Source of the DNA: a virus
Length of the DNA stretch: 64,000 nucleotides
IMG/VR virus record: IMGVR_UViG_3300005077_000018
Span: 1,686-65,685 of that record
Direction: 5' to 3' (one strand)
Shown: positions 2,171 through 44,544 of the stretch, piece by piece
How the letters are laid out: the number at the start of each line of letters is the position of its first letter
Position numbering within the stretch: position 1 is the first letter of the stretch
Notes under the pieces: model-generated
What the model saw: the letters and a program-made list of their open reading frames with translations, nothing else
Databases searched by the model: none
Told to the model about the DNA's origin: nothing
Position numbers and translations under genes: made by a program

Positions 2171-2463
2171 TGAGAAATGATCTACACCCTACCGATCGCT
2201 CTCTTCCCGAACATGACACCCTCAACCCTCGAGGAGGAGAATTCGACGAAGAGTTCGCCGTCGCCAGTGAACTTCGGGTCATCGACCTCGGAGATTCCCT
2301 CACGATCGGAAGAGTTTTCCTGGACCCGTATGGGGATCCCTATTCCTATGAGACCGACACCCTCTACGCAGACAATCTTTCCGGTCTTCGGGAGATGGTC
2401 AGAGAGATTACTCTCGCTTTGAGCAGACCTGCTGTGAATTCTCGAGACATGATCCAATGCTGA
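2170..2463 (+). CDS. Hypothetical protein
   Basis: TAATG-coupled ORF between terS and terL. Confidence 0.6.
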   Translation: MRNDLHPTDRSLPEHDTLNPRGGEFDEEFAVASELRVIDLGDSLTIGRVFLDPYGDPYSYETDTLYADNLSGLREMVREITLALSRPAVNSRDMIQC

Positions 2464-3792: not shown

Positions 3793-5763
3793 ATGGTTCG
3801 TTCAGACCAGGATAAATTCAAAACACAGGAACCGGAAGATTTCTTCGCTAATATGGTGAAGATTTATACCGATATAGACGAGGAGAAAGAACCTCCGTAC
3901 TCTAAGGATAGTCGTGCTCGGGATAAGTGGCTCATAGAATTTGCGAGGAGAGAGCCGCATTTGAGCGGAATACTGTCAAGTGTTACTGCCATTGATAAGA
4001 ACAGAGGGTGGTCTCTAATCGGATCGATGCGTCAGGTTAACAAGTACGCACGAATTCTTCACAATTTCAGAGTGTCTCCCGGTCTAAAGGGATGGCGTCC
4101 AGCTTTCGCTCAGCTGTCGGCATCATTCTGGGGCACGAATCTGGGCGCAGTTGTTGAAGTCGGTAGAGTGGGAGTTGATGGACCTGTTCAGGAATTCTAC
4201 ACAGCAGATCCGACTAAATTCGTCCTCGCAAAGGATCAAAAATTCCCTATTTACTATTATCCTTCCAATGGAAAGAGAATGAAGTGGAGAGATTCAGATT
4301 TCTTCAGGATTTGTTCTCTTCCTTCCATTCTCGAGGAGAACATGGGAATAGGATTCTGTGCCGTCGATCGTGCTGTTCAGCTTGCGAGACTGATGCTGGC
4401 TCTTTTTCGTCATGATGAGGAGATGCTTCTTTCTCGTGCTCCAAGAGGCCTTCTGCTTCTGTCCGGAATAAAGCGCGATCAATGGGAATCCGCTATGAAA
4501 GCAAGAGACGCGGAGCTGGATCAGGGTCAAATGAAGTATTTCGGAGCGATAGCCGTTCTTGCCTCAGCTTCCTCTACCGTTGAGGCGAAGCTCATGGCCC
4601 TTTCTCAGCTTCCGGCGGGTTTCGATCTGAAGATATGGATGGATATGATCATGTACGGATATTCTCTATGCTTCGGATATGACGCATCGGAATTCTGGCC
4701 GGTTCAATACGGTTCTTTGGGGAGAGGAAATGAAACACAGATTCAGCACGAGAAAGCAACCGGAAAGGGTCGTCTTGACTTCGTTCTCGGATTCCAGGAA
4801 CAGGTTACTGATTTTCTGCCTGAGTCTCTTGACTTTGTTGTTGAGCAGCGTGATGATCAGGGAGATCTTACTCGTGCGTCCGTTATTCAGGCGTGGGCGA
4901 ATGTTGCCAAATCTCTGTACACATCTCAATTGAACGGAATTCCTCTGGTAACGAATGAGGAGGCTAGAGTACTTCTGGCCGAGTACGGAGTTATTCCAGC
5001 TACGTGGAGTCCTACCGCCGATGCTTCTGCTACCGATATCGATGATGCTGACGACGAGGAAGTGGTCGATCAACCCGAAGACGAGGAGTCTGCAGGAGGA
5101 TCGTCAGAAGGGAACATGAAGCCAAAGTCAACCAGTCCTGACTCGGCTTCTCCCACCGCTGAGATGCTTCGGTCAGCTTACAAAACTCGAAGAATTCAAG
5201 ATTTAAGAGAGGTTGTTCTTCAGAAAGCTTCTGTGTTTGAAGCCGCGAGAAGATTTCCTAAAGAACCTATTGTTCAGTTTACTTACCCCGGGAATAATAT
5301 CCTGGAGCTGTGGAAATCAGGAGAGGATTTGATGAAACCTAGAGTTTGGGCTTCCATAGGAGATGTTGTTAGAAGAGCAATTCAGGAGAGTCTTCCTCCG
5401 GCAGTTGTCGGATCTGGTCTTGTTCAATCCAATCAGCCGACTCAACCTCAGATTGTGGTTGTAGATACTGAGGGAAGAATAGTTCAGCAAGCACGTCAAG
5501 AACCTTCCATAGTTGTGAACGTGCCCGAGCAGAATTTCCAGGTTGACTTGGAGAGGCTCGGTGAAGTCATAGCCAAACAACTGAAACAGGCTTCTGATCC
5601 TACGATAACTCTTACTCCGATCATTCAACTTCCAGAAATTCCTGTGATCGTAGAGAATAACGTAACTATCCAGGAGCCAGTTACCGAGGCGGTCGTAGAG
5701 GTCAACAGAGGATTCGACGGGAAGATTAAATCGGTAAAGAAAACTGAAAAGGTCATACGATGA
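3793..5763 (+). CDS. Portal protein with acidic linker and C-terminal extension
   Basis: Directly after terL, 656 aa, helical portal-like composition. Confidence 0.8.
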   Translation: MVRSDQDKFKTQEPEDFFANMVKIYTDIDEEKEPPYSKDSRARDKWLIEFARREPHLSGILSSVTAIDKNRGWSLIGSMRQVNKYARILHNFRVSPGLKGWRPAFAQLSASFWGTNLGAVVEVGRVGVDGPVQEFYTADPTKFVLAKDQKFPIYYYPSNGKRMKWRDSDFFRICSLPSILEENMGIGFCAVDRAVQLARLMLALFRHDEEMLLSRAPRGLLLLSGIKRDQWESAMKARDAELDQGQMKYFGAIAVLASASSTVEAKLMALSQLPAGFDLKIWMDMIMYGYSLCFGYDASEFWPVQYGSLGRGNETQIQHEKATGKGRLDFVLGFQEQVTDFLPESLDFVVEQRDDQGDLTRASVIQAWANVAKSLYTSQLNGIPLVTNEEARVLLAEYGVIPATWSPTADASATDIDDADDEEVVDQPEDEESAGGSSEGNMKPKSTSPDSASPTAEMLRSAYKTRRIQDLREVVLQKASVFEAARRFPKEPIVQFTYPGNNILELWKSGEDLMKPRVWASIGDVVRRAIQESLPPAVVGSGLVQSNQPTQPQIVVVDTEGRIVQQARQEPSIVVNVPEQNFQVDLERLGEVIAKQLKQASDPTITLTPIIQLPEIPVIVENNVTIQEPVTEAVVEVNRGFDGKIKSVKKTEKVIR

Positions 5764-6653
5764 GCGGTTTGTCCGTAGTCATTCCCTCCAGGAACGAGCT
5801 ATTTCTGGAAAATACAGTCAGGGATATTTTGACCAACTCAAGAGGAGAACTTGAGATCATCGTAGTTCTTGACGGATATTGGCCCAATCCTCCTCTACCG
5901 GACGATCGAAGAATCAGCATCATTCACAGAGGAAAAGCTAGAGGAATGCGTGACGGGATCAATTCAGCGATTAGTATAGCTCGCAACAAATTCGTCATGA
6001 AATGCGATGCTCATTGTCTATTCGCCGAGGGATTTGATGAAATTTTGAAGGCTGACTGCGACGATGACTGGGTTGTTATTCCAAGAAGATACTCTCTAAA
6101 TCCAGACACGTGGGGTCTAAATAAAAAGACTCCGGTAGACTATCATTTTCTGAGTTATCCGTGGTGGAAGCCTGAGATGCTCGGTCTTCATGGAACGGTA
6201 TGGACAGAACGGGCCAAGGAGAGGCTTCACATTACTCTGGACGAGGAAATGAGTTTTCAGGGATCCTGCTGGTTCACTACCAAGGATCATTTTATCAACA
6301 GAATAAGATTTCTTGAAGAGGAAGGATACGAAACTTTCATCGGAGAACCTCAGGAGGTTGGAAATAAAACTTGGTTGGGAGGGGGCAAGGTAATGGTCAA
6401 TAAGAAGACCTACTACGCTCATCTCCACAAGGGAAAGAGGTTCGGACGAGGATACTTCATGAGCAAAGACGAGACCTACCGAGGAAATCAGTTCAGTTGG
6501 AATTTCTGGTTCTACGACCAATGGTCTGACAGAATTCACGATTTATCCTGGCTAGTAGACAGATTTTGGCCCGTTCCATCCTGGCCTGAAAACTGGAAAG
6601 ACATTCATGAAAACGATATTAGACTTCGTAGAAAACCTGGAAAGTCCTCGTAG
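5760..6653 (+). CDS. Family 2 glycosyltransferase
   Basis: LSVVIPSRNE, EIIVVLDG, GMRDGINSA, KCDAH. Confidence 0.9.
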   Translation: MSGLSVVIPSRNELFLENTVRDILTNSRGELEIIVVLDGYWPNPPLPDDRRISIIHRGKARGMRDGINSAISIARNKFVMKCDAHCLFAEGFDEILKADCDDDWVVIPRRYSLNPDTWGLNKKTPVDYHFLSYPWWKPEMLGLHGTVWTERAKERLHITLDEEMSFQGSCWFTTKDHFINRIRFLEEEGYETFIGEPQEVGNKTWLGGGKVMVNKKTYYAHLHKGKRFGRGYFMSKDETYRGNQFSWNFWFYDQWSDRIHDLSWLVDRFWPVPSWPENWKDIHENDIRLRRKPGKSS

Positions 6654-7236
6654 ATCTCCCGTTGAAATCACCGGAGTTGGGAGAGATGATCTTGCGGTCT
6701 TCTTCCGGGAAGCTGGATTTCGCGTAGGAGTTGAGCTGGGAGTTGAGCAGGGATTGTTCACTGAGGTTTTAGCGAAATCTAATCCTGAGGCTAAGATTTA
6801 TGCGATAGATGCTTGGGAGGCATATCGTGGATACCGAGATCATGTGTCTCAGAGCAAACTGTCGGATTTCTATCTCGAGGCGAATAGACGGGTTAGAGAT
6901 TTGAACGTAGAATTGGTTGTAGCTTTCAGCATGGATGCTCTAGAGCAGTTTGATGACGAATCTCTTGACTTTGTCTATATAGACGCAAATCACGAACTAC
7001 CGTATGTGATCAGAGACATAATCGAATGGAGTAAGAAAGTTAGGAAGGGTGGAGTAGTCTCTGGCCATGATTATTACGAGTCAAAACGTATTTCCACCAA
7101 GAATCATGTAAAATATGCGGTAGATTGCTACACTAGATCCTATAGAATAAATCCCTGGTTCATTCTAGGTTCCAAAGCTAAGAATGACGGGGAAATCAGA
7201 GACAAATCAAGGTCTTGGATGTGGGTAAAACGGTAG
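6607..7236 (+). CDS. Class I SAM-dependent (O-)methyltransferase
   Basis: GVELGVEQG, DESLDFVYIDANH, GGVVSGHDY. Confidence 0.9.
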   Translation: MKTILDFVENLESPRRSPVEITGVGRDDLAVFFREAGFRVGVELGVEQGLFTEVLAKSNPEAKIYAIDAWEAYRGYRDHVSQSKLSDFYLEANRRVRDLNVELVVAFSMDALEQFDDESLDFVYIDANHELPYVIRDIIEWSKKVRKGGVVSGHDYYESKRISTKNHVKYAVDCYTRSYRINPWFILGSKAKNDGEIRDKSRSWMWVKR

Positions 7237-8135
7237 ATTTATCAGTAATCATTCCTGCTAGAAATGAGGAATTTCTGGGAGAAACCGTCAAAGGAGTCCT
7301 GGATAACTCAAGAGCTAACACAGAGATTGTGGTGGTTCTCGATGGAGAGTGGCCTGTGAATTCGTTGAGAATTGATCCGAGATTGTCCATTCTCTACCGT
7401 CCTGAAAGTATAGGTCAAAGAGCAGCTATGAATGAGGCGTTCAGGTTATCCAGGGGTCGATGGATCATGAAACTTGACGCTCATTGCGCTGTTGATGAGG
7501 GTTTTGATCGGAAGCTTTTGTCCGTTATCAAGCCCGATTGGACGATGGCTCCCTGCATGAAGAATCTCCATGTTTTTGATTGGGTTTGCTCTTGTGGGCA
7601 TAGAATCTACCAAGGACCTATACCTAAGAAATGTCCTTCTTGCTCTGGATCTTCTTTCAGTAGAGAAATAGTCTGGATTCCCAAATCCAGTCCTAACAGT
7701 TGTTCCTTCAGATTCGATCGAGATCTTCGCTTTCAATACTGGAGAGAGTTTGGAAAGAGGCCTGAAGGAAAGGGTCCTATAGCTCCGTCTTTGAGTCTTC
7801 AGGGATCTTGTTTCATGTTGTCTAGGGAAAAGTACGAGGAGTTGAATATAGCTGACGAGGAACATGGTTCTTGGGGTCAGCAGGGAACAGAGGTAGCTTG
7901 TAAGACGTGGCTTTCCGGGGGTCAGGTTATGATCATGAAGACTACCTGGTATGCTCATCTATTCAGAACTCAAGCTGGATTTACTTTTCCCTATAAACTT
8001 GAATCTGGACAGGTTGATCATGCTAGAAAATACTCTAGAGAGCTTTTTCTCGAGGGAAAATGGGATAAGGCTATTTACGATCTGAATTGGTTGCTTGAAA
8101 AATTCAAACCAGTTCCAGGATGGCATGATGGCTGA
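7215..8135 (+). CDS. Family 2 glycosyltransferase, paralog of 5760..6653, with Cys-rich insert
   Basis: LSVIIPARNE, VVVLDG, KLDAHC, QGSCF, KTWLSGG shared with the first GT; CxC...CPSC insert. Confidence 0.9.
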   Translation: MDVGKTVDLSVIIPARNEEFLGETVKGVLDNSRANTEIVVVLDGEWPVNSLRIDPRLSILYRPESIGQRAAMNEAFRLSRGRWIMKLDAHCAVDEGFDRKLLSVIKPDWTMAPCMKNLHVFDWVCSCGHRIYQGPIPKKCPSCSGSSFSREIVWIPKSSPNSCSFRFDRDLRFQYWREFGKRPEGKGPIAPSLSLQGSCFMLSREKYEELNIADEEHGSWGQQGTEVACKTWLSGGQVMIMKTTWYAHLFRTQAGFTFPYKLESGQVDHARKYSRELFLEGKWDKAIYDLNWLLEKFKPVPGWHDG

Positions 8136-8820
8136 AATAATTTACTATACTTGTAATACTCATCCTCCAGAAATAGATCTGAACTGCAGAAGAGTTCTGA
8201 AGGATGTTCCTCTAAGAATAGTGTGTGTATCTTTGAACTCTATGCTGGATTTCGGAGATCACAACATCATGATGACCGGAGAAAGAGGTCCTCTGATGAT
8301 GTTTCGTCAGATCCTTACCGGACTTCGTGCTTCAGATGACGACTATGTATTTCTTTGCGAGTCTGACGTTCTTTATCCGTTCAGTCATTTTTCTCCTCCA
8401 GCTATTTTGAGTAACGAATTTCTGTACAATACGAATGTATGGAAGATGAGGTTCTCTGACGGTTTACTGGTTTGGACCGACAACATGATTCAAGTAAGTG
8501 GTTTATTCAGCAGAAGAGAGTTTCTCATGGACTGGGTTTTCAAGAAGATCGATCAGATAAAGAAAGATGGATTTGATCGACATTACGAGCCTGGTGTTCG
8601 TCAGAAACTAAAATTCGACTGCAAAGTCAATACTTGGGAATCGGCGTCTCCTCTAGTTTGCGTCAGACACGACAAGAACTTGACCAAATCAAAGTGGTCT
8701 CCTGAGGAATTCAGAAATTCCAAGTTTGCCTACGGATGGAAGACCGCTAGAGAAATTCCTCTGTGGGGAACATCTGAGCAGATTCTGTCAATTTTTGGTA
8801 GAAGTGGAGAATCGAAATGA
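8125..8820 (+). CDS. Glycosyltransferase-like protein (GT-A fold)
   Basis: QILTGL...DDDYVFLCESDVLY motif; start probably ATG near 8125-8128. Confidence 0.6.
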   Translation: MMAEIIYYTCNTHPPEIDLNCRRVLKDVPLRIVCVSLNSMLDFGDHNIMMTGERGPLMMFRQILTGLRASDDDYVFLCESDVLYPFSHFSPPAILSNEFLYNTNVWKMRFSDGLLVWTDNMIQVSGLFSRREFLMDWVFKKIDQIKKDGFDRHYEPGVRQKLKFDCKVNTWESASPLVCVRHDKNLTKSKWSPEEFRNSKFAYGWKTAREIPLWGTSEQILSIFGRSGESK

Positions 8821-11800
8821 GTCTAATTATACGCTCTACAAGAATAGCGGCTCCGACTTCTACCGGAAATCAAGATATAACAATCTCTGATTTCGGAACT
8901 CCGAAATTTGCTATTTTACAGATAACGAATGCTACACAGAATGCTACTTCTGTTAATCATTTAGTTTATGGATTTGGCATGGTCGGAAACAGTCAACAGA
9001 TGGCTGTTGGAAGAACCGACGAGCATAATCTCGATACTTCTGACGCTTACGATACGAATAGTACCAGCAAATGTCTGATCATTCTAAATCCAGCGGATGG
9101 AACTGTTGATGGAGAAGCAGAATTCGTAGAGTGGATAACCAATGGAATAAGAATAAATTGGACCAATGCTCCTTCTTCAGCCTATCTTGTTACCGCTACT
9201 CTTTTCGGAGGAACTGATCTCACGAACGTGTATTTGGGATCAGTAAATCCGAGCTCAACTTTGAATAATACAGTAGATGTCACTGCTCCTGGATTTCAAC
9301 CTAATCTAGTATTTACTGCCGAGTCTTTATCTTCAAGCACAGCTTACGGTGGAGTTAGTCTCGGAGTAGTTCATAGCGGAATTTCTGTGACTCAGGGGTC
9401 TATCCAGGCCATGTCCAGAGATGCTAGAGGAACTACTCAATCAGCTCTTAACATATCCGATTCTTACGGATCAGGTATAGCTCTTTTGACCGCTAATGGT
9501 TATCAGGCTGAGTTTGGTAGTTTTGATGCCAGCGGATTCTCTATTACTACCAGGGGAAGTGCGAATGCCGTAGGAACTCTGTTTTATGCGGCTTTAGCGA
9601 TAACTAATTTTGATATAAAGGTTGGATTCCTCTCTACTCCCACCTCTACCGGAAGTCAGGGAATTACAGGAGTCGGATTCAAACCTCAATTTCTGTATAC
9701 TCTATTCGGTGGAGCAGAAGCATACGACACTAATTACGATGATGATGATGGATGCTCTTTTTCTGTAGGTGTTGCTGATTATCTCAACGAGTATTCCTGC
9801 ACTATAACTACAGATATAGATGCCGGAACTTCAGATACGGAATCTAGAGTTGATGATAGTCTTGTAAGAATAAATAATCCGGATGGTTCCGTTCAAGCTC
9901 AGGCTTCGTTCACTCAATTTGACAATGACGGTTGGACTTGGAATTTCTCTTCAGTTGATGGTACTGCTGGGAAAGTTGGAGTTTATCTGGCAATTGAGGA
10001 AGAAGTTTCTACCGGATCTCCTAGCTCGTCGGTTTCTCCTTCCGGTTCACCCTCAAATTCTCCTTCTGTTTCTCCTTCTGTTTCTCCTTCTGGTTCTTCC
10101 TCCAACAGTCCTAGCAATTCTCCGTCGGTCTCTCCGTCGTCTAGTACCTCTCCTTCGAGTAGTGTGAGTCCTTCTCCTAGTGTAGGAATTTCTACTTTTG
10201 TGAATGGTTACGGAGGAGATGTAAATTCCGCTAAAGACGCTCTTCTTAATGGTAGAATTCCAGAGTTGGGTCTTGAGGATCACGGAAGTTTCGAGGTAGA
10301 TGATCAGCAGAGAGGCTTGATATTTTTCAGTTGTTCAGCTGTTCCTGCAGGAAGTCATTGTTCTTCGGCTACTCTCGAGATGTGGAAAAATGATTCGGGA
10401 GGAGTCAACGTTTGCGAAGTTGAGATTTACAAAGTAGCTCTAGCTAATAAGAATTGGATTCTGGGAGAGGGAGTAGGAAATCCTGCTCCTGAAGATTGTC
10501 CAACTTGGGAAGCTCTAGCCGCCGATGGAAGCGGAGGAGTGAAAGTTGCTTGGGCGGGTTCAGCCGGTTTGTCTACCGCTGGAACAGACTACAACTCTAC
10601 CATGATTGGATCTTTCATATTTTCCGGTTCTGACGCCGCAGGGACTCACTACACTTGTGAGTTGGATCCGGATTCTGTAGAGGAGTGGTTCGGGTCGGAC
10701 GATTATAATGCTGGACTGCTTCTGATATTCCCTGTATTCACAGGAAATCATCTTACTCAATCAGAATATGGGACAACTGGATACAGACCAAAACTAACCA
10801 TTGAGTATATAGAAGCTAGCGATTCTCCATCTCTATCTCCGTCGGCCTCTCTTTCTCCATCTTCTAGCGTTTCTCCCAGTGAGTCGGCAAGTTTATCTCC
10901 CTCATCCAGTATTTCTCCATCGTCTAGTAGTTCTAGCTCTCAGTCTCCTAGCGATTCTCCTTCGCTTTCTCCCTCTTCATCTCTCAGCCCTAGTAGCTCT
11001 GAGAGTCCTAGTGTTTCTCCTTCCAGCTCAGGCTCTTCGTCTCAGAGTCCCTCTGTTTCTCCGTCCAGTTCGAGCTCTGCAAGTCAATCTCCAAGCTCTT
11101 CTTTGTCTCCCAGCTCTTCTGTGAGTCCTTCTCAGAGCTCGTCTAATTCTCCTAGTTTATCTCCGTCAAGTTCGGAATCTGCTAGTCAGTCTCCTAGCTC
11201 TTCGAATTCAGCTAGTCAATCTCCTAGCTCGTCTACCTCTCCAAGTTCGTCAGTTTCTGCAAGCCAGTCGTCTAGTTCGTCTCCAAGTTCGTCGTCAAGT
11301 ATTTCTCCCTCTCCGTCCATTGGAGATATTCCGTGGAATCTGCCTTCGTCAGTCAATGTCTATATAGGATCCATCGATTCCGGATCCGTGTGGTCTACAC
11401 ATGACGATGACGATCAGAAGTTTGTGGTCTCTGGAGTCATAGGAACTCCAGCTTTCATGATCGATTTAGTTTTTGGAGAGGGAGAGGAAGTTCCGTCGTT
11501 TAATCTTCTACTTACCGTTAGAGGATTCTACTCCGGAAATCCAGGTCATAACGTAAAACTTCGTCAATATAACTGGGCTACAGAAGATTGGGATGATGTT
11601 ACTTCGGATGTTCAAGATTTTCCGGATCAAAGCTCCGATCAGGAATACGAATTTGATCTTATAGCAGATATTGATCATTTGAGTGATACAGGACTTGTGT
11701 CTGTAGCCATAGTCCACACTACCTCAGGAACTGCGGACGATCAGCTTAGTATAGATCATGCGTTCTTGACTCTTCTTGGAAGTCCTAGTAGTAGCGTCAG

Positions 11801-12458: not shown

Positions 12459-12467
12459 GAGAAATCT

Positions 12468-12992
12468 ATGAGTGCAAGTCTTCCAATCGAGTATCTCAGA
12501 GATCTTCCGTTTCATTTTCCAGCTTTTTTCGAGACTGGAACTTCAGAGGGAGATACGGTTCAGTCGGCTCTTGAAGCTGGGTTTTCAGAAATCTACTCCG
12601 TAGAGTTCCATCCAGAAATTTTTAGGAAGGCTCAAAGAAGATTCGTCGAATCCAAAAATGTGAGTTTGCTGAATTTCAAATCGGTGGAAGGTCTCAAAAT
12701 TCTAATCCCGTTTATTGAGGTTCCTACCGTATTCTTCCTGGATGCTCATCCCGATAGAGATGCGGGAGAATCTCCAATCTTGGAGGAGCTAGACGAGATT
12801 TCCAAATTCAAGCTTCCGTTTGTAATATTCGCTGATGATATGAGACTCATGGGTCAGGGAAAATGGTCAAGATCTTCTACCTCGGCTATTCAAGAGAAGA
12901 TTCTGTCTATCCATTCTGATTTTATGATAGATTTTATCGGCAACGGTCATTCAGATAGAGATCTTCTTAGAGCCGTGAGGAATTGGAAATGA
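12468..12992 (+). CDS. SAM-dependent methyltransferase-like protein
   Basis: FFETGTSEG, YSVE, FFLDAH, ILEEL, FADDMR. Confidence 0.7.
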   Translation: MSASLPIEYLRDLPFHFPAFFETGTSEGDTVQSALEAGFSEIYSVEFHPEIFRKAQRRFVESKNVSLLNFKSVEGLKILIPFIEVPTVFFLDAHPDRDAGESPILEELDEISKFKLPFVIFADDMRLMGQGKWSRSSTSAIQEKILSIHSDFMIDFIGNGHSDRDLLRAVRNWK

Positions 12993-14686: not shown

Positions 14687-14703
14687 TCGGTGACTAAAAA
14701 GTA

Positions 14704-14712
14704 TGCTATAAT
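14704..14712 (+). promoter_or_regulatory. Extended -10 promoter upstream of the scaffold/capsid genes
   Basis: TGCTATAAT followed by GAGG RBS and ATG 14734. Confidence 0.6.
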
Positions 14713-14733
14713 GGGTTATAACGAGGAATTGAA

Positions 14734-16071
14734 ATGAGCGATCTAAAGGAAATTTTTAGAGATTTTCAGACGCTAATGGGCAAGCTGTTCAAAGCTATTC
14801 CGGCTGAGCAGTCCGTTAGCGTTCAAAACTTGTACGAGCAGGTATGGACTGCCTCCCTGGAGGGCGAGGATTGGATGTGGTTGATCGATCTATACGTAGA
14901 TGAGGCTTCTGGATCCATCTCGGCTCTTTTCGCAAAAGAGGGAAAGCTCTTCATGTCTCCGGTTTCTCTTAGTGATTCTGGAGCAACTCTCGGAGAGATG
15001 ACTCAGGTCAAGGAAGTTTTTGAACCTGTGGTCAACTCTATTAGAGTACGTCAGAGCGTCGATGGAACTTCCAGATGGTTCCTGATTTCCTCGTCTACCG
15101 TTCTGAATCGATCCGGATACTTCAATACAAAAGAACTATTCGATAAATTCGTCGAACAGAGCGAAAGCGGTAAAAATCCTTACGCCACCTTCTATCATCT
15201 AGAAGAGGTGATGAAGCTAGGGTCTGTAGACTGGATCGCCAGAGAAGGAAATCTTCTGTTGATGTCCGGTCTTTTCGACGACTCTGAGCTAGGAAGATTG
15301 ATGAAGGAAGCGATAGAGAAGGATCCCGACTATTGGGGTTCTTCTATTTCGTTCTATCCCTACGACCATAAGATGGTTAAAATAACCGAGAGCATTTCTC
15401 TTCCTGCCTATACTGATGGAGAACTGATCGAGGTCTCATTCCTGCCCGAAAAAGAGGCATGTGCTCTTCTTACTTCGGCAGTAGCTCAAGGAAGGAACAA
15501 ACTGATGGAAGAAAGAATTCTTAATGCTTTGAAGAAATTGACCGACGGAGATGAAAGTCTTCTGGAAACCCTGGTCGACAAGATCGACTCGGCTAACGGA
15601 GTGATCACTAAAGAAGGTCTTCTTCACCAATCAACTGAGACGACCGAGGTGACCGAGGTGACCGAGGAAGCTGCTGAGGAATCGGCAGGTTCAGGTCAGG
15701 TCGAGGAGATTGTTCTCGACGAATCGCTCATCAAAACTGTTGTTAATCAGCTGGCTGATCATCCCTCCATGAATGAATTCAGGCTCCTGTCCGAGCAGAG
15801 ATTCCAGGATCTTCAGCAGTCGATCGAGTCTTTGACGAGATCACTCGAAGAGTTGAGAACTGCGTTCGGAGCTTCCACAACCTCGGTTGACCAGCGGCTC
15901 AAGAGGATGGAGAAACCTGTGGCTGAACTCCAGCAACAGACTCAGAATGACCTTCCGAGAAATTCCACTCAGAGAGTTGTGGTCTATAGACCCAGTCTTC
16001 AGGAAACCGGAGAAGAGGAAAAACTCAATCCGTCCGACCTCGCGGAACAGACGCTTTCGAGGATCCGGTAA
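14734..16071 (+). CDS. Putative prohead protease/scaffold protein
   Basis: Position upstream of capsid; globular N-terminal part and acidic coiled-coil C-terminal part. Confidence 0.55.
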   Translation: MSDLKEIFRDFQTLMGKLFKAIPAEQSVSVQNLYEQVWTASLEGEDWMWLIDLYVDEASGSISALFAKEGKLFMSPVSLSDSGATLGEMTQVKEVFEPVVNSIRVRQSVDGTSRWFLISSSTVLNRSGYFNTKELFDKFVEQSESGKNPYATFYHLEEVMKLGSVDWIAREGNLLLMSGLFDDSELGRLMKEAIEKDPDYWGSSISFYPYDHKMVKITESISLPAYTDGELIEVSFLPEKEACALLTSAVAQGRNKLMEERILNALKKLTDGDESLLETLVDKIDSANGVITKEGLLHQSTETTEVTEVTEEAAEESAGSGQVEEIVLDESLIKTVVNQLADHPSMNEFRLLSEQRFQDLQQSIESLTRSLEELRTAFGASTTSVDQRLKRMEKPVAELQQQTQNDLPRNSTQRVVVYRPSLQETGEEEKLNPSDLAEQTLSRIR

Positions 16072-17366
16072 TGAGCCAATTTACCGAAACCCAACTTCAC
16101 GAAGCTAGATCGGAAGAGCGTAGACGTAGAACTTATGTTGCTCCGTCTACTTTCGAGCGCATTAAGAAGTATTTCCGTCCGGATGTTAAATCCGCCCTGG
16201 GAAAATACACCTATTTTGCCTCCAGAGATATCGGTCTTGACGGATCTGACTATCAACCAAAGGTGAATTGGGATGCTTTGCGTGGAAGAATGAAGTTCGT
16301 GATCTGGAAAGCGGCCGAAGTTCCCGATTCCTGGAAAACCTACGATCCGGCTAACTGGATTCAGAAAACTTTCGCTGATGCCTGCGACAAGTGCTACTCC
16401 AATGACATTCCCTTCTCGGGATATATCTATCTGAATCCGGCATACTTCTGGGTAAACGGAGGAACCGAGCAGAGCTGGCTGAATATTGACGATGAAACGG
16501 ATCCGGTAATATGGGCGAAGAACGTTTTGAAGACCGATCTCAACGTTTACATCACGGTTAGATCCTGGATCATCGGAACTGGTTTAGGAGACTGGGTTTT
16601 AGATCCGAATCTTCTCAAGAAGGCGTACTACAAGAAAGTTTATTCCTGGTGGGGAGATGCTGAAAGATGGTACAGAAGTACTTCAGATTGGCTGACCAAC
16701 GGCAATTCAGCAACCAGGGTTGGATCCGTCTGGATCAATAATATGTTCGGTAGGTGGGCTTACCGCATGACCAGACTGATGCGTCATGGATTCATTCCTA
16801 CCGTTCCTGTTGGATTCTATTCGGCTAAGTGGTTCATAGACACATACTGCAAAGAATTCGATCTGTCAACAGCTCAGAATTATCCTGTATGGAACGCAGG
16901 ATGGTACTGGAATCCCAGTCCTTCGGTTGTAACGACTCTGGAGGGTGTGAAGGATCAATTTACCACTATACCCGATGAGTGGAGACCCAAGATGTGGGGT
17001 AAGGATCCCACCGACATTATTCAGGTCTCTGGCGACAGATTCAAGATTCCGGAGATCACGAATCTTAACGGAGTTCCTGTAGGAACTGACTGGAACGTTT
17101 GGTGGAATCCCGGTCAAACTCTTCATCAATTCCTGAAGTATTCTTCCAAACCTCAGGAATGTCCGACAGGATCTCATTGGGACGATGTTCAGAAGATTTG
17201 CGTTCCTGACGATGTTCCCGGTCCTTCTACTGATCTTGAGAAAAGAGTTCAGGCTCTGGAAGAATTCAGATTGGAAGCTCAAAGAAACATGGAAGAGCTG
17301 AATAAAACCGCGACTTCTCTTAGAGACTCCGTACATTCAGCTGGCGATTCCTTGAAGTCAGCCTAA
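16071..17366 (+). CDS. GH25-like muramidase (endolysin candidate)
   Basis: IGLDGSDYQPKVNW, FVIWKAAE, YSAKWF, VWNAGW, C-terminal coiled coil. Confidence 0.7.
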   Translation: MSQFTETQLHEARSEERRRRTYVAPSTFERIKKYFRPDVKSALGKYTYFASRDIGLDGSDYQPKVNWDALRGRMKFVIWKAAEVPDSWKTYDPANWIQKTFADACDKCYSNDIPFSGYIYLNPAYFWVNGGTEQSWLNIDDETDPVIWAKNVLKTDLNVYITVRSWIIGTGLGDWVLDPNLLKKAYYKKVYSWWGDAERWYRSTSDWLTNGNSATRVGSVWINNMFGRWAYRMTRLMRHGFIPTVPVGFYSAKWFIDTYCKEFDLSTAQNYPVWNAGWYWNPSPSVVTTLEGVKDQFTTIPDEWRPKMWGKDPTDIIQVSGDRFKIPEITNLNGVPVGTDWNVWWNPGQTLHQFLKYSSKPQECPTGSHWDDVQKICVPDDVPGPSTDLEKRVQALEEFRLEAQRNMEELNKTATSLRDSVHSAGDSLKSA

Positions 17367-17385
17367 ACATAGGAGGATTATCGAA

Positions 17386-17451
17386 GTGAAGTTAATCTTT
17401 GACGGTAAAGTTACTGCGAAAGCAGATCTAACGCACAGAAGGAGTTTGTAA
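17386..17451 (+). CDS. 21-aa ORF coupled to the capsid start
   Basis: AGGAGG RBS, GTG start, MKLIFDGKVTAKADLTHRRSL, TAATG overlap. Confidence 0.35.
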   Translation: MKLIFDGKVTAKADLTHRRSL

Positions 17452-18737
17452 TGACCATTTCAGATTTAGCTACGATCTATGGGTGCTGTGGTCTGTTTGA
17501 CCTATGCAGTGACCAAGATCTGATGCCCCTCTAGTTAGAGGGCCAGTCCAGATTCATGGAATAGATCGGATGGGCGAAAACGAATGTTTGTGTGATCAAG
17601 AAAAACTTCATCACCTACATTCGCGCCGAGGAGAGCAAGGATGTAATGACAACCGGCTATCTCTCCAATCCCTGCGGAGATTCCAATGGAGTCGAGTGGG
17701 GATCCTGCGACTTCACTCTTGAAGATTTTGCTCTTCTTCGCCGACACGGTCCCGAGCGGAATGCTACCAGATCTGCCGTGAAGTATTGCGAAACTCAGCC
17801 GCGCTATCGGCTAGACGGATCTCCGATCACCAGCGATGTCGAATTTGACATGAGACTCGCTACCGAAGGAGTACTTCAGGATCTCAAGAGAATGCTTGTT
17901 GACGGCAACAAGGCTACCGCCGGTCAGTTCGATGGATTGACTCGCCTCGTGAAAACCGGCTATACGAACTCTCGTGGCGTCCACTGTAGATCCATGGATT
18001 CCATCGTTGTCGACTGGAACGCCAATGGTTTGGACGGTGGTAACGGGATTACCTGGAATGGAGTCTCGGTTGCCAGCACCTACTCTATGGTAGATGTTTT
18101 GATCGCCATCATTCGCCGGATCAAGGATCGAATCTCCATGTCTCCGGCTCTGTCGGCTCAGCCTCTTTCAGTTGGCGACATCATCGTTCTCGCTCCGTCT
18201 CACATTCTGAGAGCTCTGCTTGATTCGTTTACCTGCTGGAGTGTTTGCCCTGGTTCCACCAGTATTCAGGTTGCAATTCAGAGCTACGAGGCTCGAAGAT
18301 TCCGGGACAGTCTCATGGGCGGTCTCTTTGGAGACGGAAAGATCTATATCGATGGTTTTGAGATTCCTCTCTGCAAGTATGACTGGGGTCTCCATACTCC
18401 ATCGACCGGATATTCTGACATGTACGTTCTCACCGGAAGAATCGGAAACGTGAAGACTATTTCCGGTCAGTATCTGGATCTTTCCACGGTTCCGACCAAC
18501 TACCCTGAGGCGAATTACTCCTATACCGATGGCGGTCGTCTTCTGACCTGGCTTGAAAGAACCAAGACCTGCGTCTACCGTGAGGTGGAAATGCAACCTC
18601 GGTTGCTGATGTGGGCTCCTTGGGCTCAGGCGAGAATTCAGGACATATCGATCACTCCTCTGGGTGGTGTTATCAGTCCTGATCCTTGGGCTGCTACCTT
18701 CCCCGAGACCAGTTTCTCGGCGGCGGTTTGTCCATAG
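17451..18737 (+). CDS. Major capsid protein; frame interrupted by TAG at 17532-17534 and 17562-17564
   Basis: AAGGAG RBS and ATG 17451 in frame with track ORF 17592..18737; GQFDGL motif; position between scaffold and head-tail genes. Confidence 0.75.
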
Positions 18738-18760
18738 TCATTTCCTGATCCTCCTTGAAA

Positions 18761-18792
18761 GAGGGTGGGAGATCCGAAATTCTCCCACCCTC
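18761..18792 (+). terminator. Perfect 12-bp hairpin after the capsid gene
   Basis: GAGGGTGGGAGA / TCTCCCACCCTC, 8-nt loop; no U tract, so attenuator or stabiliser. Confidence 0.6.
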
Positions 18793-18806
18793 GAAGGAAT
18801 AAAAAA

Positions 18807-20132
18807 TTGGATTTTTCTGTTATCGTTCCGTCGTTCAATTCCGCGAAGTATCTTCCGGATCTGTTTCACTCCATATTCGGAGGCGAAACTTCTATTGGCG
18901 TTCTCAAAGCTCAAACTATTCTACCGTACGAAATTATAGTTGTTGATGATGCCTCTCAGGATAATACAGAAGAGGTAGTTGATTCGTTTAGAAGCAAATT
19001 TCCCAGGATATCCTACTACAGGTTGAACAGAAATAGTGGAACTCCTGTGGCTTGCAACGTAGCCGTCAGAAACAGTTCTACGGAAATAATCACTAGAATT
19101 GATTCCGACGATATGCGAGAGTTCGAATCTTTCGAGCGGATGCTTTCTATTCAGAGGTCGAATCCGAATTCGTTCGTTTTCGACGACATAAAAATATTCG
19201 TAAATGGAAAAAGACAGGTTCACGCATGGATAATGCCTGAGTATGATTTCTTCGGTCTTTTGCGGCAAAATACAATTCATGCAGGAATAATGTTTCCTAA
19301 ATCCGCATGGGAGAAATGCGGAGGATATCCCGAAGAGTTTGTCCGCGGAAGAGATGACTGGTCATTCAATGTTGCTCTTGGATCTGTGGGATGTTGCGGT
19401 ATTCATGTTCCTTACGCTGGCTATTTGTACAGAAGAGAGCAGCAAAATCGAACTTTACGAAATTCGTCATCGGAAGCTCAGAGAGACTTCATGTTTCAGA
19501 TGACGAAAAGATTTCCTGATCTGTACTCTGGGAGGTTTCCTATGGGATGCTGTGGAAATAGAGGTTCGCGTACTGCGACTTCTAAACCCTCCGGTTCTTC
19601 GTCGGAACTGGTTGTTGGAGAGGAAGGAATGACAATCCTCGAATATCAGGGAGGAAATTACGGTACTGAGACTTTCTACGGTCCTGTAACCAGAACTCCT
19701 TATCGATTCAACTCCACAAAATATTCGAAAAGAAATGTAGACAATCGGGATTTGCACGCTCCGAAAGGTCAAGGTCTTTTGGATTTTCACAACGGATCTA
19801 AGCCGATATTCGTTATTTGGCGTCCTTCCGAGCCAGTCGTTCAGGTTAACGACGTTCCCGAAGTTCCCGACATTTCCAAGACTGTCGAAGTTCCTGAGAC
19901 TGCGGACGCAACTTCCTCTGAAGTCAATGAGGCTGTTATGACGTTTCCGATCAGAACTCCGATAGAATCGGGACAAGTGAAAGGAATAACGGTAAAGAGA
20001 ATAAAAGCTCTTTCCGACAGGGGCATATCGGATTGGGAATCTTTCGTGTCGTCTTCCTCGGAGCTTCTGTCCGAGATTACTGGAATGTCTGTTGAGGACA
20101 TCAACGCGATCAAGAAGGATCTGACTGAATGA
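18807..20132 (+). CDS. GT2 glycosyltransferase fused to an MGCCG-type domain and an HhH-like C-terminus
   Basis: SVIVPSFN, IIVVDDASQD, RIDSDD, GRDDW; TTG start after AAGGA. Confidence 0.85.
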   Translation: MDFSVIVPSFNSAKYLPDLFHSIFGGETSIGVLKAQTILPYEIIVVDDASQDNTEEVVDSFRSKFPRISYYRLNRNSGTPVACNVAVRNSSTEIITRIDSDDMREFESFERMLSIQRSNPNSFVFDDIKIFVNGKRQVHAWIMPEYDFFGLLRQNTIHAGIMFPKSAWEKCGGYPEEFVRGRDDWSFNVALGSVGCCGIHVPYAGYLYRREQQNRTLRNSSSEAQRDFMFQMTKRFPDLYSGRFPMGCCGNRGSRTATSKPSGSSSELVVGEEGMTILEYQGGNYGTETFYGPVTRTPYRFNSTKYSKRNVDNRDLHAPKGQGLLDFHNGSKPIFVIWRPSEPVVQVNDVPEVPDISKTVEVPETADATSSEVNEAVMTFPIRTPIESGQVKGITVKRIKALSDRGISDWESFVSSSSELLSEITGMSVEDINAIKKDLTE

Positions 20133-20479
20133 TTGACGATATTCTTAGAATTCCTCTCGCGATTCTGGCCGTCTTTAGAGTTACCGAACTGATGGTTTAT
20201 GACGACGGTCCTTTCGGAGTATTTCTACGATTTCGTCATTTTCTGGCGGATCTTTCTACTTCGTCGCGAGCAAGGAATTCGGGAATCAGAACCGTAAGTA
20301 CCGAACTTGCCGACTGGGTTCATTGTCCGTTCTGTGTTGGAGTTTGGATCTCTGTGGTATTTGCGGTTCTGATTCTGATTCCTTCCATTCCAGGAGATGT
20401 TATCATATTGATCCTGGGTTTGGCCGGAGGACAGTCATTTCTACAGCAAAAGGTTTCAAGAGATGCGCTCACGCAATAG
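20129..20479 (+). CDS. DUF1360-like membrane protein
   Basis: LAVFRVTELMVYDDGP and CPFCVGVW with hydrophobic helices. Confidence 0.7.
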   Translation: MIDDILRIPLAILAVFRVTELMVYDDGPFGVFLRFRHFLADLSTSSRARNSGIRTVSTELADWVHCPFCVGVWISVVFAVLILIPSIPGDVIILILGLAGGQSFLQQKVSRDALTQ

Positions 20480-20530
20480 TTTGGGTTTTTTGCAAGGTGT
20501 AAAAATACCTATTGCAATTATGCGCGAAAA

Positions 20531-20545
20531 AATCGAACGTTGTAG
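20531..20545. repeat. Dispersed 15-mer AATCGAACGTTGTAG, copy 1
   Basis: Identical at 51438-51452 and 56551-56565. Confidence 0.9.
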
Positions 20546-20582
20546 TGGCTCGTTTTTGGTCATTTTTAGGGTTGTATAACCA

Positions 20583-44543: not shown

Positions 44544-44544
44544 A

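Follow-up and report, generated by a model that had tools for sequence, protein, structure and literature searches.

The window analyzed here (the whole stretch of 64,000 nucleotides, positions 1,686 to 65,685 of the IMG/VR virus record IMGVR_UViG_3300005077_000018) belongs to an uncultured tailed phage. Among its head-assembly genes we found an island, in which five glycosyltransferase (GT) genes and two methyltransferase (MTase) genes flank the gene of a serine-rich protein, and which spans from the putative portal gene (3793) to the gene following the capsid gene. All seven enzyme genes of the original prediction were present on the plus strand at or near the positions given there. For the last GT a start at 18807 had been suggested, which is equally possible, but the open reading frame (ORF) is called here as 18765-20132. 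The gene at 12983 encodes two domains, as had been proposed, and the predicted serine-rich protein (8817-12458) contains 343 serines in 1,213 amino acids. The term overlap-coupled was also appropriate, since the gaps between successive genes from the portal to the two-domain GT amount to -4, -47, -22, -11, -4, +9, and -10 nucleotides. The features are as follows:

3793-5763, plus strand: putative portal protein, 656 amino acids, upstream boundary of the island (position, size, conservation)
5760-6653, plus strand: GT-A glycosyltransferase GT2_a of a DxH GT27-like family (PF00535, 5.4e-13)
6607-7236, plus strand: SAM methyltransferase, Methyltransf_24 (PF13578, 9.6e-17)
7215-8135, plus strand: GT2_b, second DxH GT27-like glycosyltransferase, with a 4-Cys zinc-ribbon-like insertion (PF00535, 1.7e-15)
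8125-8820, plus strand: GT-A fold glycosyltransferase-like protein (ESM-Atlas model)
8817-10001, plus strand: fibre head with three jelly rolls in tandem, which together make up a C1q/TNF-like pseudo-trimer, residues 1-395 (model)
10002-10190, plus strand: Ser-Pro stalk 1, residues 396-458 (Ser fraction 0.40-0.60 in 30-residue blocks)
10191-10814, plus strand: DNRLRE-like beta-sandwich domain, residues 459-666 (NF033679, E 6.3e-7, 29.6 bits, under the 34-bit cut-off)
10815-11324, plus strand: Ser-Pro stalk 2, residues 667-836 (Ser fraction 0.43-0.67)
11325-11780, plus strand: third globular domain, residues 837-988 (low Ser content)
11781-12341, plus strand: Ser-rich stalk 3, residues 989-1175 (Ser fraction 0.60-0.73)
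12342-12458 including the stop codon, plus strand: short non-repetitive C-terminal tail, candidate virion anchor
12468-12992, plus strand: small class I SAM O-methyltransferase-like protein (Atlas model and profile)
12983-14686, plus strand: two-domain glycosyltransferase, GT2 plus Glyco_trans_1_2 (PF00535, 3.3e-20; PF13524, 5.5e-11)
14734-16071, plus strand: putative scaffold/prohead-protease-like protein (its gene immediately precedes that of the capsid in every relative)
16071-17366, plus strand: Trp-rich protein of 431 amino acids, inserted between scaffold and capsid genes (window-specific)
17451-18737, plus strand: major capsid protein (homology to IMG/VR loci)
18765-20132, plus strand: GT2 glycosyltransferase with a C-terminal helix-hairpin-helix, GT2-HhH (PF00535, 4.5e-25; sub-threshold HHH_5 match, 5.4e-4)
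20129-20479, plus strand: DUF1360 small membrane protein with three TM-like segments (PF07098, 5e-10)

The putative portal gene directly follows TerL (PF04466) and its product shares 27-56% identity with its counterparts in relatives. Because it had no Pfam, PHROG, or PDB sequence match, it was assigned by position and size. The scaffold-like protein had no family match, and a PDB search yielded weak coiled-coil-type matches for its C-terminal part only. For the Trp-rich protein, neither a homologue in any relative nor a family or PDB match was found. The capsid protein is 37-70% identical to those of 16 IMG/VR loci. It had no family match and its AF2 model is poor (pLDDT 50), but the weak Foldseek matches of this model are nearly all HK97-fold capsids. 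The N-terminal 47 codons of the capsid gene are broken by two in-frame TAGs (17532, 17562) and an intact ORF starts from a GTG at 17592. In relatives the corresponding N-terminus is intact, Cys-rich, and aligns with the interrupted stretch. Because of the two TAGs, this copy of the genome may be defective or wrongly assembled. The DUF1360 gene start-stop overlaps the GT2-HhH gene and follows the GT in nine related loci.

GT2_a and GT2_b are members of one alignment (A5), and a profile of nine such sequences was searched against the PDB. Here, we found that 15 of the top 16 matches were polypeptide GalNAc-transferases (GT27; E 2.7e-16 to 9e-10), which aligned over profile positions 4-261 of 286, i.e. 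the whole catalytic domain. Seven residues are invariant in A5 (D88, H90, E226, K230, W232, G236, and H248 in GT2_b numbering) and correspond in the alignment to the DxH and Gal/GalNAc-T motifs of GalNAc-T9; the invariant residues include the His of the Gal/GalNAc-T motif. The GT2-HhH profile matched GT27 enzymes at E 6e-5 or worse and over the nucleotide-binding half only, and the two-domain GT profile gave no GT27 match at E 0.01. By sequence profile, GT2_a and GT2_b are similar to the enzymes by which animals initiate the glycosylation of mucins; for the phage enzymes, such a donor, acceptor, and linkage are putative. GT2_a is 43% identical to its orthologue in an independent complete phage (G001), and no homologue of GT2_b was found among 50,697 GenBank phage records.

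The neighboring 8125 protein had no match in Pfam, PHROG, or NCBIfam, but its ESM-Atlas model (pTM 0.89) superimposed on GT2-bearing clusters with TM values of 0.68-0.90. A homologue of this domain is fused to a 7215-type GT in 65 of 80 related loci and forms a separate gene in 11 more. The 8125 protein is colinear with residues 331-560 of the fused homologue and its reading frame differs from that of GT2_b. Sequence comparison thus identifies it as a C-terminal half that has become a gene of its own here, whereas most relatives encode both halves as one fused protein. Relatives of the 6607 MTase occur in about 50 of 80 GT27-like loci, and G001 has two copies.

The protein encoded between these enzymes is Ser/Pro-rich and looks like a display protein. 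All six serine codons are used and the DNA repeats of the gene are short and low-copy only; the serine tracts are codon-scrambled, so that the composition appears to be selected at the protein level. The model of its head is of high quality (pLDDT 95), and the C1q/TNF-like subdomains resemble tail-fibre tips; stand-alone homologues of the head are located among podovirus tail genes and also end in a short tail. Family searches with the third globular domain gave no match. The C-terminal tail shares an 8-residue acidic/hydrophobic motif with its positional analogue in G001, at equal distance from the C-terminus, although this similarity is weakly significant (179 of 5000 shuffles). There is neither a signal peptide nor a convincing TM segment in the protein, its one hydrophobic stretch lying within the third globular domain, and no homology to known decoration or head-fibre proteins was detected.

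The GT27-like DxH family is represented on at least 554 IMG/VR contigs. Among the best 80 of these loci, 61 carry a Ser/Thr-rich ORF (same strand, at least 50% Ser+Thr across 100 residues). Dereplication at 90% identity left 59 loci with a length of 12 kb or more; such an ORF was present in 50 of them, as compared with none of 37 control loci (Fisher p 2e-18), which were TerL-centered, lacked the GT, and were all of one TerL lineage. In 34 of the dereplicated loci the ORF starts at most 4 kb downstream of the GT, and the sole control locus with a Ser/Thr-rich ORF also carries the GT27-like GT. The original prediction had spoken of a glyco-system of the capsid; this part is refined here, in that the best supported acceptor is the co-encoded serine-rich protein rather than the capsid in general. 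In G001, the gene order is portal, GT27-like GT, MTases, GT-A, serine-rich protein, 12468-like MTase, two-domain GT, scaffold, capsid, and GT2-HhH. Its serine-rich protein (988 residues) is LamG-headed and has a Ser-Ala-Ser type repeat. In other lineages, the cassette adjoins an S78 protease with a PF05065 capsid gene, a P22-type portal, or TerL with an SPP1-type portal, and in addition there is a weak, below-cut-off match to a gp6-like connector. In every lineage examined it lies within structural modules. The GT27-like cassette and the fibre gene are a mobile add-on, which is co-transferred into unrelated head modules.

The remaining three enzymes are distributed differently. The 12468 protein had no Pfam match, but its Atlas model resembles FkbM, CmcI, and class I SAM methyltransferase clusters (TM 0.80-0.86), its seven-sequence profile matches O-methyltransferases (YrrM, 4.5e-5; COMT, 7e-4), and motif I (ETGT..G) is conserved. 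Its homologues adjoin the portal gene in L002-L005, L007, and L008. Orthologues of the 12983 GT (45-56% identity) lie between portal and scaffold genes in L002-L007, and its profile gave generic GT2 matches only in the PDB. The GT2-HhH profile matched the GT2 domain of chondroitin synthase (2.5e-41), GalT1, an enzyme acting on serine-rich repeat proteins (SRRPs; 9.6e-24), and the N-terminal HhH of Rad51 (1.5e-3). Of the 22 loci with sequence available upstream, 21 keep the order scaffold-capsid-GT. All three enzymes are also present in relatives without any Ser/Thr-rich protein and, therefore, their target differs from the serine-rich protein. They probably act on a different part of the virion, for which the subunits of capsid or tail tube are, as in mycobacteriophages, the obvious candidates.

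What the analysis shows directly is which genes are present, with which folds and motifs, their synteny, and the statistical association of the GT with Ser-rich ORFs; from here on we infer the identity of the acceptor, the chemistry of the glycan, and the attachment to the virion. We consider it fairly probable that the island is a cytoplasmic protein O-glycosylation system, the main product of which is a glycosylated, O-methylated, mucin-like fibre that joins the virion. This product appears most likely because two enzymes resembling the starters of mucin glycosylation are encoded beside a serine-rich protein. Late in infection, the structural operon would deliver the 1,213-residue fibre protein together with the soluble enzymes. 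The 5760 and/or 7215 enzymes would start O-linked glycans on serines of the three Ser-Pro stalks, in the manner of polypeptide GalNAc-transferases acting on mucins, and would draw on nucleotide sugars of the host; the island carries no genes of nucleotide-sugar synthesis. The glycans might be extended by the GT-A partner 8125, possibly with the help of the 12983 and 18765 enzymes, and the two methyltransferases (6607, 12468) would add methyl caps to the sugars. The stalks would then form a stiff, protease-resistant bottle-brush that displays the C1q/TNF-like head and the DNRLRE-like domain as binding modules, and the C-terminal tail would anchor the fibre to some protein of the head or neck.

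Alternatively, the GTs might decorate the major capsid or tail-tube subunits directly, with the serine-rich protein as bystander or secondary acceptor. The position of GT2-HhH behind the capsid gene (21 of 22 related loci), the 12468 and 12983 genes flanking scaffold and capsid genes in relatives without a Ser-rich ORF, and the conserved Ser/Thr-containing tail at the capsid C-terminus fit this idea, and so do mycobacteriophage glycans, which an account of Freeman 2023 in PMC12619734 places at the C-terminal ends of the subunits of capsid and tail tube. However, it leaves unexplained why the GT27-like enzymes are linked to Ser/Thr-rich ORFs (50/59 vs. 0/37) and why cassette and fibre gene move together into unrelated head modules, and no island GT is detectably homologous to a GenBank mycobacteriophage GT. 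As an account of the whole island it is unlikely, but for the three conserved enzymes it is probably true and thus complements the fibre explanation more than it competes with it.

A host-directed function appears quite unlikely. Here, the enzymes would alter surface glycoconjugates or Ser-rich surface proteins of the host, e.g. for superinfection exclusion or receptor masking, and the Ser-rich protein of the phage, taken over from a host surface or serving as a decoy, would not belong to the virion. The closest cellular homologues (48-59% identity) are carried by Patescibacteria MAG contigs, and 41 of 80 of them adjoin Ser/Thr-rich ORFs; the system therefore occurs in cells as well, and a host-directed role of the phage copy is conceivable, but such contigs could be prophage sequences or phages binned in error. 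The PHROGs label on the weak 12983 and 18765 matches ("GtrB-like O-antigen conversion") and the coupling of the membrane protein DUF1360 to GT2-HhH point in the same direction. On the other hand, none of the island GTs and MTases has a TM segment, so that the enzymes are soluble, and like the Ser-rich protein they lack signal peptides. Flippase, polymerase, and oligosaccharyltransferase genes are not present and no tyrosine integrase was found in the genome. Moreover, the island genes are translationally coupled by overlaps to late structural genes, which is the wrong timing for exclusion, and the cassette keeps to structural modules. For these reasons modification of host surface polymers, which the original prediction had named as the outcome that would overturn it, is disfavored.

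It is very unlikely that GT2-HhH is a DNA glycosyltransferase acting with the putative hypermodification genes near ThyX/PolA: its C-terminal domain, also present in L008, matches a DNA-binding module (HHH_5, Rad51) and the genome has a candidate DNA-modification module, a replication-module set (two weak GT-A paralogues at 42952 and 43683, ThyX, Methyltransf_24, and PolA) that differs in sequence from the island enzymes, as had been predicted, but the HhH matches are under curated cut-offs, the gene is strictly syntenic with scaffold and capsid rather than replication genes, and the catalytic domain is nearest to polysaccharide- or protein-directed GT2 enzymes.

In the literature we found no description of a GT27-like enzyme paired with a serine stalk or of a sugar-coated mucin-like phage fibre, but several systems share parts of this design. 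Virion glycosylation has been reported for the mycobacteriophages Che8, cluster O/Corndog, and Myrna (Freeman et al. 2023, as reported in PMC11600133, PMC12619734, and PMC13313380), and the role proposed in these accounts is particle shielding. In cluster O phages, according to PMC11600133 (citing Freeman 2023), an O-methyltransferase and three tandem GTs modify capsid and tail tube. As in the island, soluble phage-encoded GTs, in cluster O with an O-methyltransferase, would thus act on virion proteins in the cytoplasm. However, there is no detectable sequence relationship, the 12983 and 18765 proteins giving distant matches over the GT2 domain only, and the initiating enzymes here are predicted to be GT27-like DxH proteins. 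As far as these accounts describe the acceptors, they are C-termini of capsid and tail-tube subunits, whereas a dedicated Ser-Pro stalk protein is best supported here.

With eukaryotic mucin-type GT27 enzymes the phage proteins share the GT-A domain, the DxH metal site, the Gal/GalNAc-T motif, and end-to-end alignment, and their predicted acceptors are likewise long Ser/Pro-rich, mucin-like tracts. In contrast to the Golgi enzymes, they are cytoplasmic, lack the ricin-type lectin domain and the type II membrane anchor, and the 7215 protein carries a 4-Cys insertion, with a second GT-A domain being fused to this type of GT as a rule. The SRRPs of Gram-positive gtf loci (Fap1, GspB, SraP) also combine very long Ser-X stalks with a binding domain and receive their glycans in the cytoplasm from a set of GTs whose genes are linked to theirs; GalT1 (PDB 5hea) was among the PDB matches of three GT profiles, and the repeat in the G001 fibre, Ser-Ala-Ser, belongs to the same type. 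However, the island lacks a GtfA/GtfB-type GT-B initiating pair, a signal peptide, an LPXTG anchor, and accessory Sec genes, and the phage protein is encoded inside a head module.

In the BclA exosporium filament of Bacillus anthracis, a repetitive, glycosylated stalk bears a C1q/TNF-like head, and methylated sugars are among its glycans; giant viruses (Mimivirus, PBCV-1) encode the enzymes that glycosylate their surface fibrils. BclA, however, forms a true trimer with a collagen-like stalk, whereas a single phage chain bears three jelly rolls on a Ser-Pro stalk; for BclA and the giant-virus fibrils there is no sequence relationship, and hosts and enzyme families differ. The topology proposed for the fibre, with the C-terminal part on the particle and the N-terminal domains outward, is that of T4 Hoc and Ig-like capsid decoration proteins; in Hoc it serves weak adhesion to surfaces and the same is proposed here. 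Hoc, however, is small, unglycosylated, and Ig-like, and capsid binding of the fibre is a proposal.

Of the multi-step, O-methylated glycan system originally envisaged, a dedicated multi-enzyme, methylating protein-glycosylation kit in the head module is supported, but it is not a single unit. The toolkit has three layers: GT2-HhH was inherited with the capsid family throughout the lineage, closer relatives share the 12468 MTase and the 12983 GT, and the GT27-like cassette with its fibre gene is mobile.

The window covers 64 kb of an IMG/VR viral contig that is 70 kb long and has a completeness estimate of 95%, and the + strand holds nearly all of its genes. Downstream of the glycosyltransferase (GT) island, a BNR-repeat protein occupies the position of the major tail protein and is followed by a 1,472-aa tape-measure protein (PF20155), so that the genome is of the siphovirus type. 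A tyrosine integrase was not detected in the window. TerL shares at most 49% identity with its counterparts in GenBank phages, the nearest being those of Thermobifida and Streptomyces phages. The capsid protein, the two-domain GT and the GT encoded at 7215 (genes are named by their start) are essentially without relatives among 50,697 deposited phage genomes, and megablast of 5000-21000 against GenBank phages returned zero matches.

The original prediction had placed five GT and two methyltransferase genes, coupled by overlaps, in the head module. Here, we found that all seven genes are real, as judged by Pfam, Atlas models and profile matches, and that the successive gaps from the portal gene to the 12983 gene are -4, -47, -22, -11, -4, +9 and -10 nt, which bears out the coupling. 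TM-like segments are absent from all seven enzymes.

Head-module genes of the window
2457-3773, TerL (PF04466)
3793-5763, putative portal protein of 656 aa, assigned by position
5760-6653, GT2 (PF00535, 5.4e-13)
6607-7236, Methyltransf_24 (9.6e-17)
7215-8135, GT2 (PF00535, 1.7e-15)
8125-8820, GT-A fold (Atlas model, TM 0.68-0.90 to GT2 clusters)
8817-12458, Ser-rich protein
12468-12992, class I SAM methyltransferase (Atlas TM 0.80-0.86; profile matches to YrrM, 4.5e-5, and COMT, 7e-4)
12983-14686, two-domain GT, GT2 plus Glyco_trans_1_2 (3.3e-20 and 5.5e-11)
17451-18737, capsid protein
18765-20132, GT2 plus HhH, here GT2-HhH (4.5e-25; HhH sub-threshold)

Two of these assignments need comment. 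For 8125-8820 we obtained no family match, and the profile of its family was likewise without a PDB sequence match; its GT-A assignment is based on the Atlas model and on fusions in relatives, where it forms the C-terminal half of a protein fused to a 7215-type GT in 65 of 80 related loci. In such single fused proteins, residues 21-318 correspond colinearly to GT 7215 and residues 331-560 to 8125. In the window the two halves are intact, are read in different frames and overlap by 11 nt, with an ATG of its own for 8125; the split would be explained either by fission of the gene or by a frameshift in the linker. The 12468 protein has no Pfam match, and its family conserves SAM methyltransferase motif I. 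Comparison with an FkbM methyltransferase of G001, a complete 75-kb relative phage with the same island architecture, gave an hhalign probability of only 33%, and the methyltransferase call relies on the Atlas model and the YrrM/COMT profile matches rather than on hhalign.

The two paralogues GT 5760 and GT 7215 share 33% identity, and a profile built from nine members of their family matched polypeptide GalNAc-transferases (T9, T1, T4, T10, T2, T12, T7) in 15 of the top 16 PDB matches, with E-values from 2.7e-16 to 9e-10. The alignment with GT27 spans profile positions 4-261 of 286 and includes the DxH motif as well as the Gal/GalNAc-T motif with its His. D88-x-H90 (GT 7215 numbering), which is invariant in 9 sequences, lies opposite the DSH of GalNAc-T9. 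Similarly, the invariant residues E226, K230, W232, G236 and H248 lie opposite its WGGEN...CGG...H.FR block, which marks the Gal/GalNAc-T motif with the third metal-ligand His. The two enzymes, 297 and 306 aa long and free of further Pfam domains and of TM segments, lack the C-terminal ricin-type (CBM13) lectin domain and the N-terminal type II membrane anchor of GT27, and their relatives carry a second GT-A domain where GT27 has the lectin domain. The likeness to CAZy GT27 extends to the GT-A catalytic domain with its DxH and Gal/GalNAc-T motifs but not to lectin domain and anchor, and because the latter two are absent we say that these enzymes work like GT27, not that they are members of it. 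The GT2-HhH profile was closest to the GT2 domain of chondroitin synthase (2.5e-41) and matched GT27 weakly and in the nucleotide-binding half only; the two-domain GT profile yielded generic GT2 matches only. GT 7215 also contains, at about aa 120-145 (7560-7640), a zinc-ribbon-like insertion (Cys-x(1-2)-Cys ... Cys-Pro-x-Cys), which the 7215-type enzymes conserve and the 5760 type lacks. This insertion might stand in for the GT27 lectin domain in substrate handling.

In the Ser-rich protein encoded at 8817, a putative fibre, three stalks (about 420 aa in total, 40-73% Ser) alternate with globular domains.

Domains of the Ser-rich putative fibre protein
aa 1-395, all-beta head (AF2 pLDDT 95.1, pTM 0.94), a candidate C1q/TNF-like arrangement of three jelly rolls about a pseudo-threefold axis
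aa 396-458, Ser-Pro stalk 1
aa 459-666, DNRLRE-like domain (NF033679, E 6.3e-7, 29.6 bits against a curated cut-off of 34)
aa 667-836, Ser-Pro stalk 2
aa 837-988, third globular domain, no family match
aa 989-1175, Ser-rich stalk 3
aa 1176-1213, non-repetitive tail

All six Ser codons occur in the Ser tracts, and the only DNA repeats there are short and low-copy, which indicates that the Ser composition is maintained at the protein level. We found no signal peptide, no convincing membrane segment and no N- or C-terminal hydrophobic segment in this protein, its single hydrophobic stretch falling within the third globular domain. Among the BFVD matches were a protein containing a DUF7483 domain as well as several unnamed viral proteins of large size. 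A stand-alone version of the head (about 420 aa) has at least 132 relatives, which likewise finish with a short tail; in one podovirus-like contig it is encoded among the genes downstream of an SU10-type adaptor. The C-terminal tails of the window and G001 fibres have a common 8-residue motif (shuffle p ~0.04), a hint that the two tails are alike.

To quantify the linkage between GT27-like enzymes and such proteins, we scored same-strand ORFs with at least 50% Ser+Thr within a 100-aa window. The GT27-like profile detected at least 554 viral contigs in IMG/VR, and a Ser/Thr-rich ORF was present in 61 of the 80 best loci. After dereplication (90% identity; loci of at least 12 kb only) the count was 50 of 59, and in 34 of these 50 the ORF begins within 4 kb downstream of the GT. 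Among 80 TerL-centred control loci (0.97 Mb), G001 alone has a Ser/Thr-rich ORF and G001 alone has a GT27-like GT; GT-free controls of 12 kb or more scored 0/37 (Fisher p 2e-18 vs 50/59), the control set representing one TerL lineage. Certain architectures recur among the Ser-rich ORFs: the N-terminal head varies, stalks follow, and the short C-terminal tails belong to a few classes. GT27 enzymes transfer GalNAc from UDP-GalNAc to Ser/Thr of polypeptides, with retention; for the GT27-like enzymes it is this genomic linkage that supports a polypeptide acceptor. A small protein class of about 250-430 aa recurs in loci L028-L107, in which the N-terminal domain (about 100 aa) is conserved and precedes a Ser-Pro tract reaching a conserved Pro-Ser-Phe-Pro end (e.g. 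L029:4327-5160, L097:1662-2513). In L029 and L097 it is encoded directly after a 371-aa ORF, and the class may represent a Ser-tailed head or connector protein.

When we compared the island across relatives (ORFs called by a simple ORF finder), three layers could be distinguished. The first is common to the whole lineage: the capsid protein retrieved 16 related IMG/VR loci (37-70% identity) and the GT2-HhH profile 33 loci, and the order scaffold, capsid, GT2-HhH was kept in 21 of the 22 loci with upstream sequence (about 16 distinct ones after merging near-identical contigs). A DUF1360 gene often lies 3' of GT2-HhH in these relatives. The second layer, found in closer relatives, has the order portal, 12468-like methyltransferase, two-domain GT, scaffold, and most of these loci are without a Ser/Thr-rich ORF anywhere. 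In L008 a sulfotransferase (1621-2277; PF13469, 2.6e-13) lies beside the 12468-like methyltransferase in the portal-scaffold slot, which seems to gather different glycan-tailoring enzymes. The third layer is a mobile cassette of GT27-like GTs, associated genes and the fibre gene, and G001 is the only one of these relatives with the extra block of the window. In G001 the portal gene is followed by a GT27-like GT (43% identical), a pair each of Methyltransf_24 and 8125-like genes, one more methyltransferase, a second GT27-like GT (54% identical) and the gene for a 988-aa Ser-rich protein, in which about 750 residues of Ser-Ala/Ser-Pro repeats join a Laminin_G_3 head to a short tail; a 12468-like methyltransferase, two FkbM methyltransferases, a GT2 and the two-domain GT come next. 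The same cassette was found beside unrelated head-gene types in four more loci.

Further loci with the cassette
L026, beside an S78 protease and a PF05065 capsid
L027, LamG/Ser-Thr-rich protein followed by an ORF whose match to a gp6-like connector is weak and below cut-off
L033, beside a P22-type portal
L054, beside TerL and an SPP1-type portal

Taken together, the Ser-rich protein is likely to be glycosylated by the GT27-like cassette in which it is encoded. If it is, the glycoprotein is probably a virion fibre, and both statements jointly can be held with somewhat less assurance, as the reading we favour. The three conserved enzymes (12468, 12983 and 18765) would, on the most economical guess, act on subunits of the capsid or the tail tube. 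A DNA-directed GT2-HhH is a minor alternative, for which the HhH domain leaves room.

Like the portal, the scaffold and neck genes were assigned by position; portal, scaffold, major capsid protein (MCP), 16071, 20583 and other proteins had no match in Pfam, PHROGs and NCBIfam, PDB sequence-profile searches with MCP, portal and scaffold gave nothing useful, and an IMG/VR search by portal recovered no relatives. The AF2 model of the MCP (14 sequences) reached a pLDDT of 50 and Foldseek returned zero matches at E <= 0.001; HK97 capsids were weakly enriched, which lends weak support to an HK97-type capsid. All relatives have a conserved Cys-rich N-terminus of the capsid protein, with which codons 1-47 of the window's capsid gene (17451-17600) align; two in-frame TAGs (17532, 17562) stand there at positions where the consensus of the relatives has Ser and Trp. 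Amber suppression or a recoding of these TAGs is unsupported, since TAG is the stop codon of at least 8 other window genes and the only tRNAs in the window are Met(CAT) and Arg(TCT), with no suppressor tRNA. An error in sequencing or assembly, or a defect of the genome itself, is the likelier cause, and the contig may thus be defective or error-containing. A Cys-Cys-Gly motif occurs both in the capsid N-terminus (17475-17500, consensus of the relatives) and in the middle of GT2-HhH (19540-19560), where C262, C263 and G264 are invariant; it may be coincidental or mark a modification or metal site common to both. A Trp-rich protein of 431 aa, coiled-coil-like at its C-terminal end, is encoded by an insertion (16071-17366) that separates the capsid gene from the scaffold gene; no homologue of it was found in the 16 relatives. 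A GH25-type lysozyme, guessed from its N-terminal motif, was dropped as unsupported by Pfam, NCBIfam and PDB. The protein at the major-tail-protein position (22536-23993) contains BNR/Asp-box repeats (PSII_BNR, 7e-9; NCBIfam glycosylhydrolase family, 5e-11) and is kept in relatives at 29-63% identity; its sequence suggests a beta-propeller on the tail, possibly carbohydrate-binding.

The island had also been predicted to be distinct from a GT/methyltransferase set in the replication module. This set (40924-46609) consists of a dUTPase/MazG-like gene, two weak GT-A paralogues, ThyX and a Methyltransf_24 gene and adjoins PolA; its domain content is consistent with a DNA hypermodification operon. 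The two sets are unrelated at the BLAST level but for one 25%-identity match, so the distinction stands with that exception.

Virion glycosylation is documented for mycobacteriophages, and according to a passage in PMC11600133 (citing Freeman et al. 2023) an O-methyltransferase gene followed by three GT genes serves capsid and tail tube in cluster O; a passage in PMC12619734 (citing Freeman et al. 2023) locates the glycans at subunit C-termini. There, as in the window with its five GT and two methyltransferase genes overlap-coupled in the head module, phage-encoded GTs and methyltransferases accompany virion genes. The concept is the same, but the enzymes and the predicted acceptor type differ. 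In tblastn against the 50,697 phage records we found no homology to the GTs of Che8, Corndog and Myrna: 7215 had zero matches, 12983 had three weak ones, none of them in a mycobacteriophage, and 18765 matched 72 records, none covering 80% of the query (22-30% identity in the 15 listed). Bacterial SRRP systems resemble the window protein and its three stalks in that a long Ser-rich region carries a binding region, but the window fibre is without signal peptide and cell-wall anchor. Among the island genes no match was found to accessory Sec export components or to a GtfA/GtfB-type enzyme, and the sole GT-B-type domain is PF13524 in 12983. A full-text literature search found nothing relevant on GT27 in phages nor on serine-rich O-glycosylated phage capsid proteins.

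As to the host, a contig profile search of species-representative genomes with a narrow family alignment identified 114 cellular relatives of the GT27-like GT. Most of the best 80 (48-59% identity) come from MAG contigs of Patescibacteria/CPR (Saccharibacteria, Paceibacterota, Woesebacteria, WWE3 and others), and 41 of the 80 have Ser/Thr-rich ORFs nearby; several "Gammaproteobacteria" MAGs of about 0.9 Mb are also represented, and their labels look wrong. A CPR/Patescibacteria host for phages with the cassette is supported but not proven because the MAG contigs may be prophages or mis-binned phages.

To our knowledge, phage virion glycosylation has been documented only for a few actinobacteriophages, in which it blunts antibody recognition, and GT27 is currently regarded as essentially eukaryotic. 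The machinery described here differs from that of actinobacteriophages and is far more widespread (at least 554 viral contigs vs 0/50,697 deposited phage genomes), and its enzymes, resembling the initiators of animal mucin glycosylation, are genetically tied to Ser-rich stalk proteins with lectin-like or possibly C1q-like heads. The layering of a lineage-fixed capsid-linked GT, a semi-conserved GT/methyltransferase pair and a mobile cassette is a natural experiment on enzyme versus virion component served. A bolder reading, which we regard as rather unlikely, combines two statements: that the DxH enzymes of phages and Patescibacteria are true prokaryotic-world relatives of GT27 starting mucin-type O-glycosylation on Ser-Pro stalks, and that GT2-HhH glycosylates the capsid shell. 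Were it true, one phage would run three separate glyco-systems (shell, mucin-like fibre, DNA), and a large unrecognised reservoir of mucin-type O-glycosylation, possibly its origin, would lie outside eukaryotes. Confirmation of glycosylation of the fibre by the cassette would make the evolutionary history of GT27 testable and provide a compact, soluble, transplantable O-glycosylation kit for glyco-engineering. It would also mean that many environmental phages, probably of ultra-small Patescibacteria, bear sugar-coated fibres, which would be relevant to adsorption, aggregation and the stability of the particle as well as to grazing or immune recognition.
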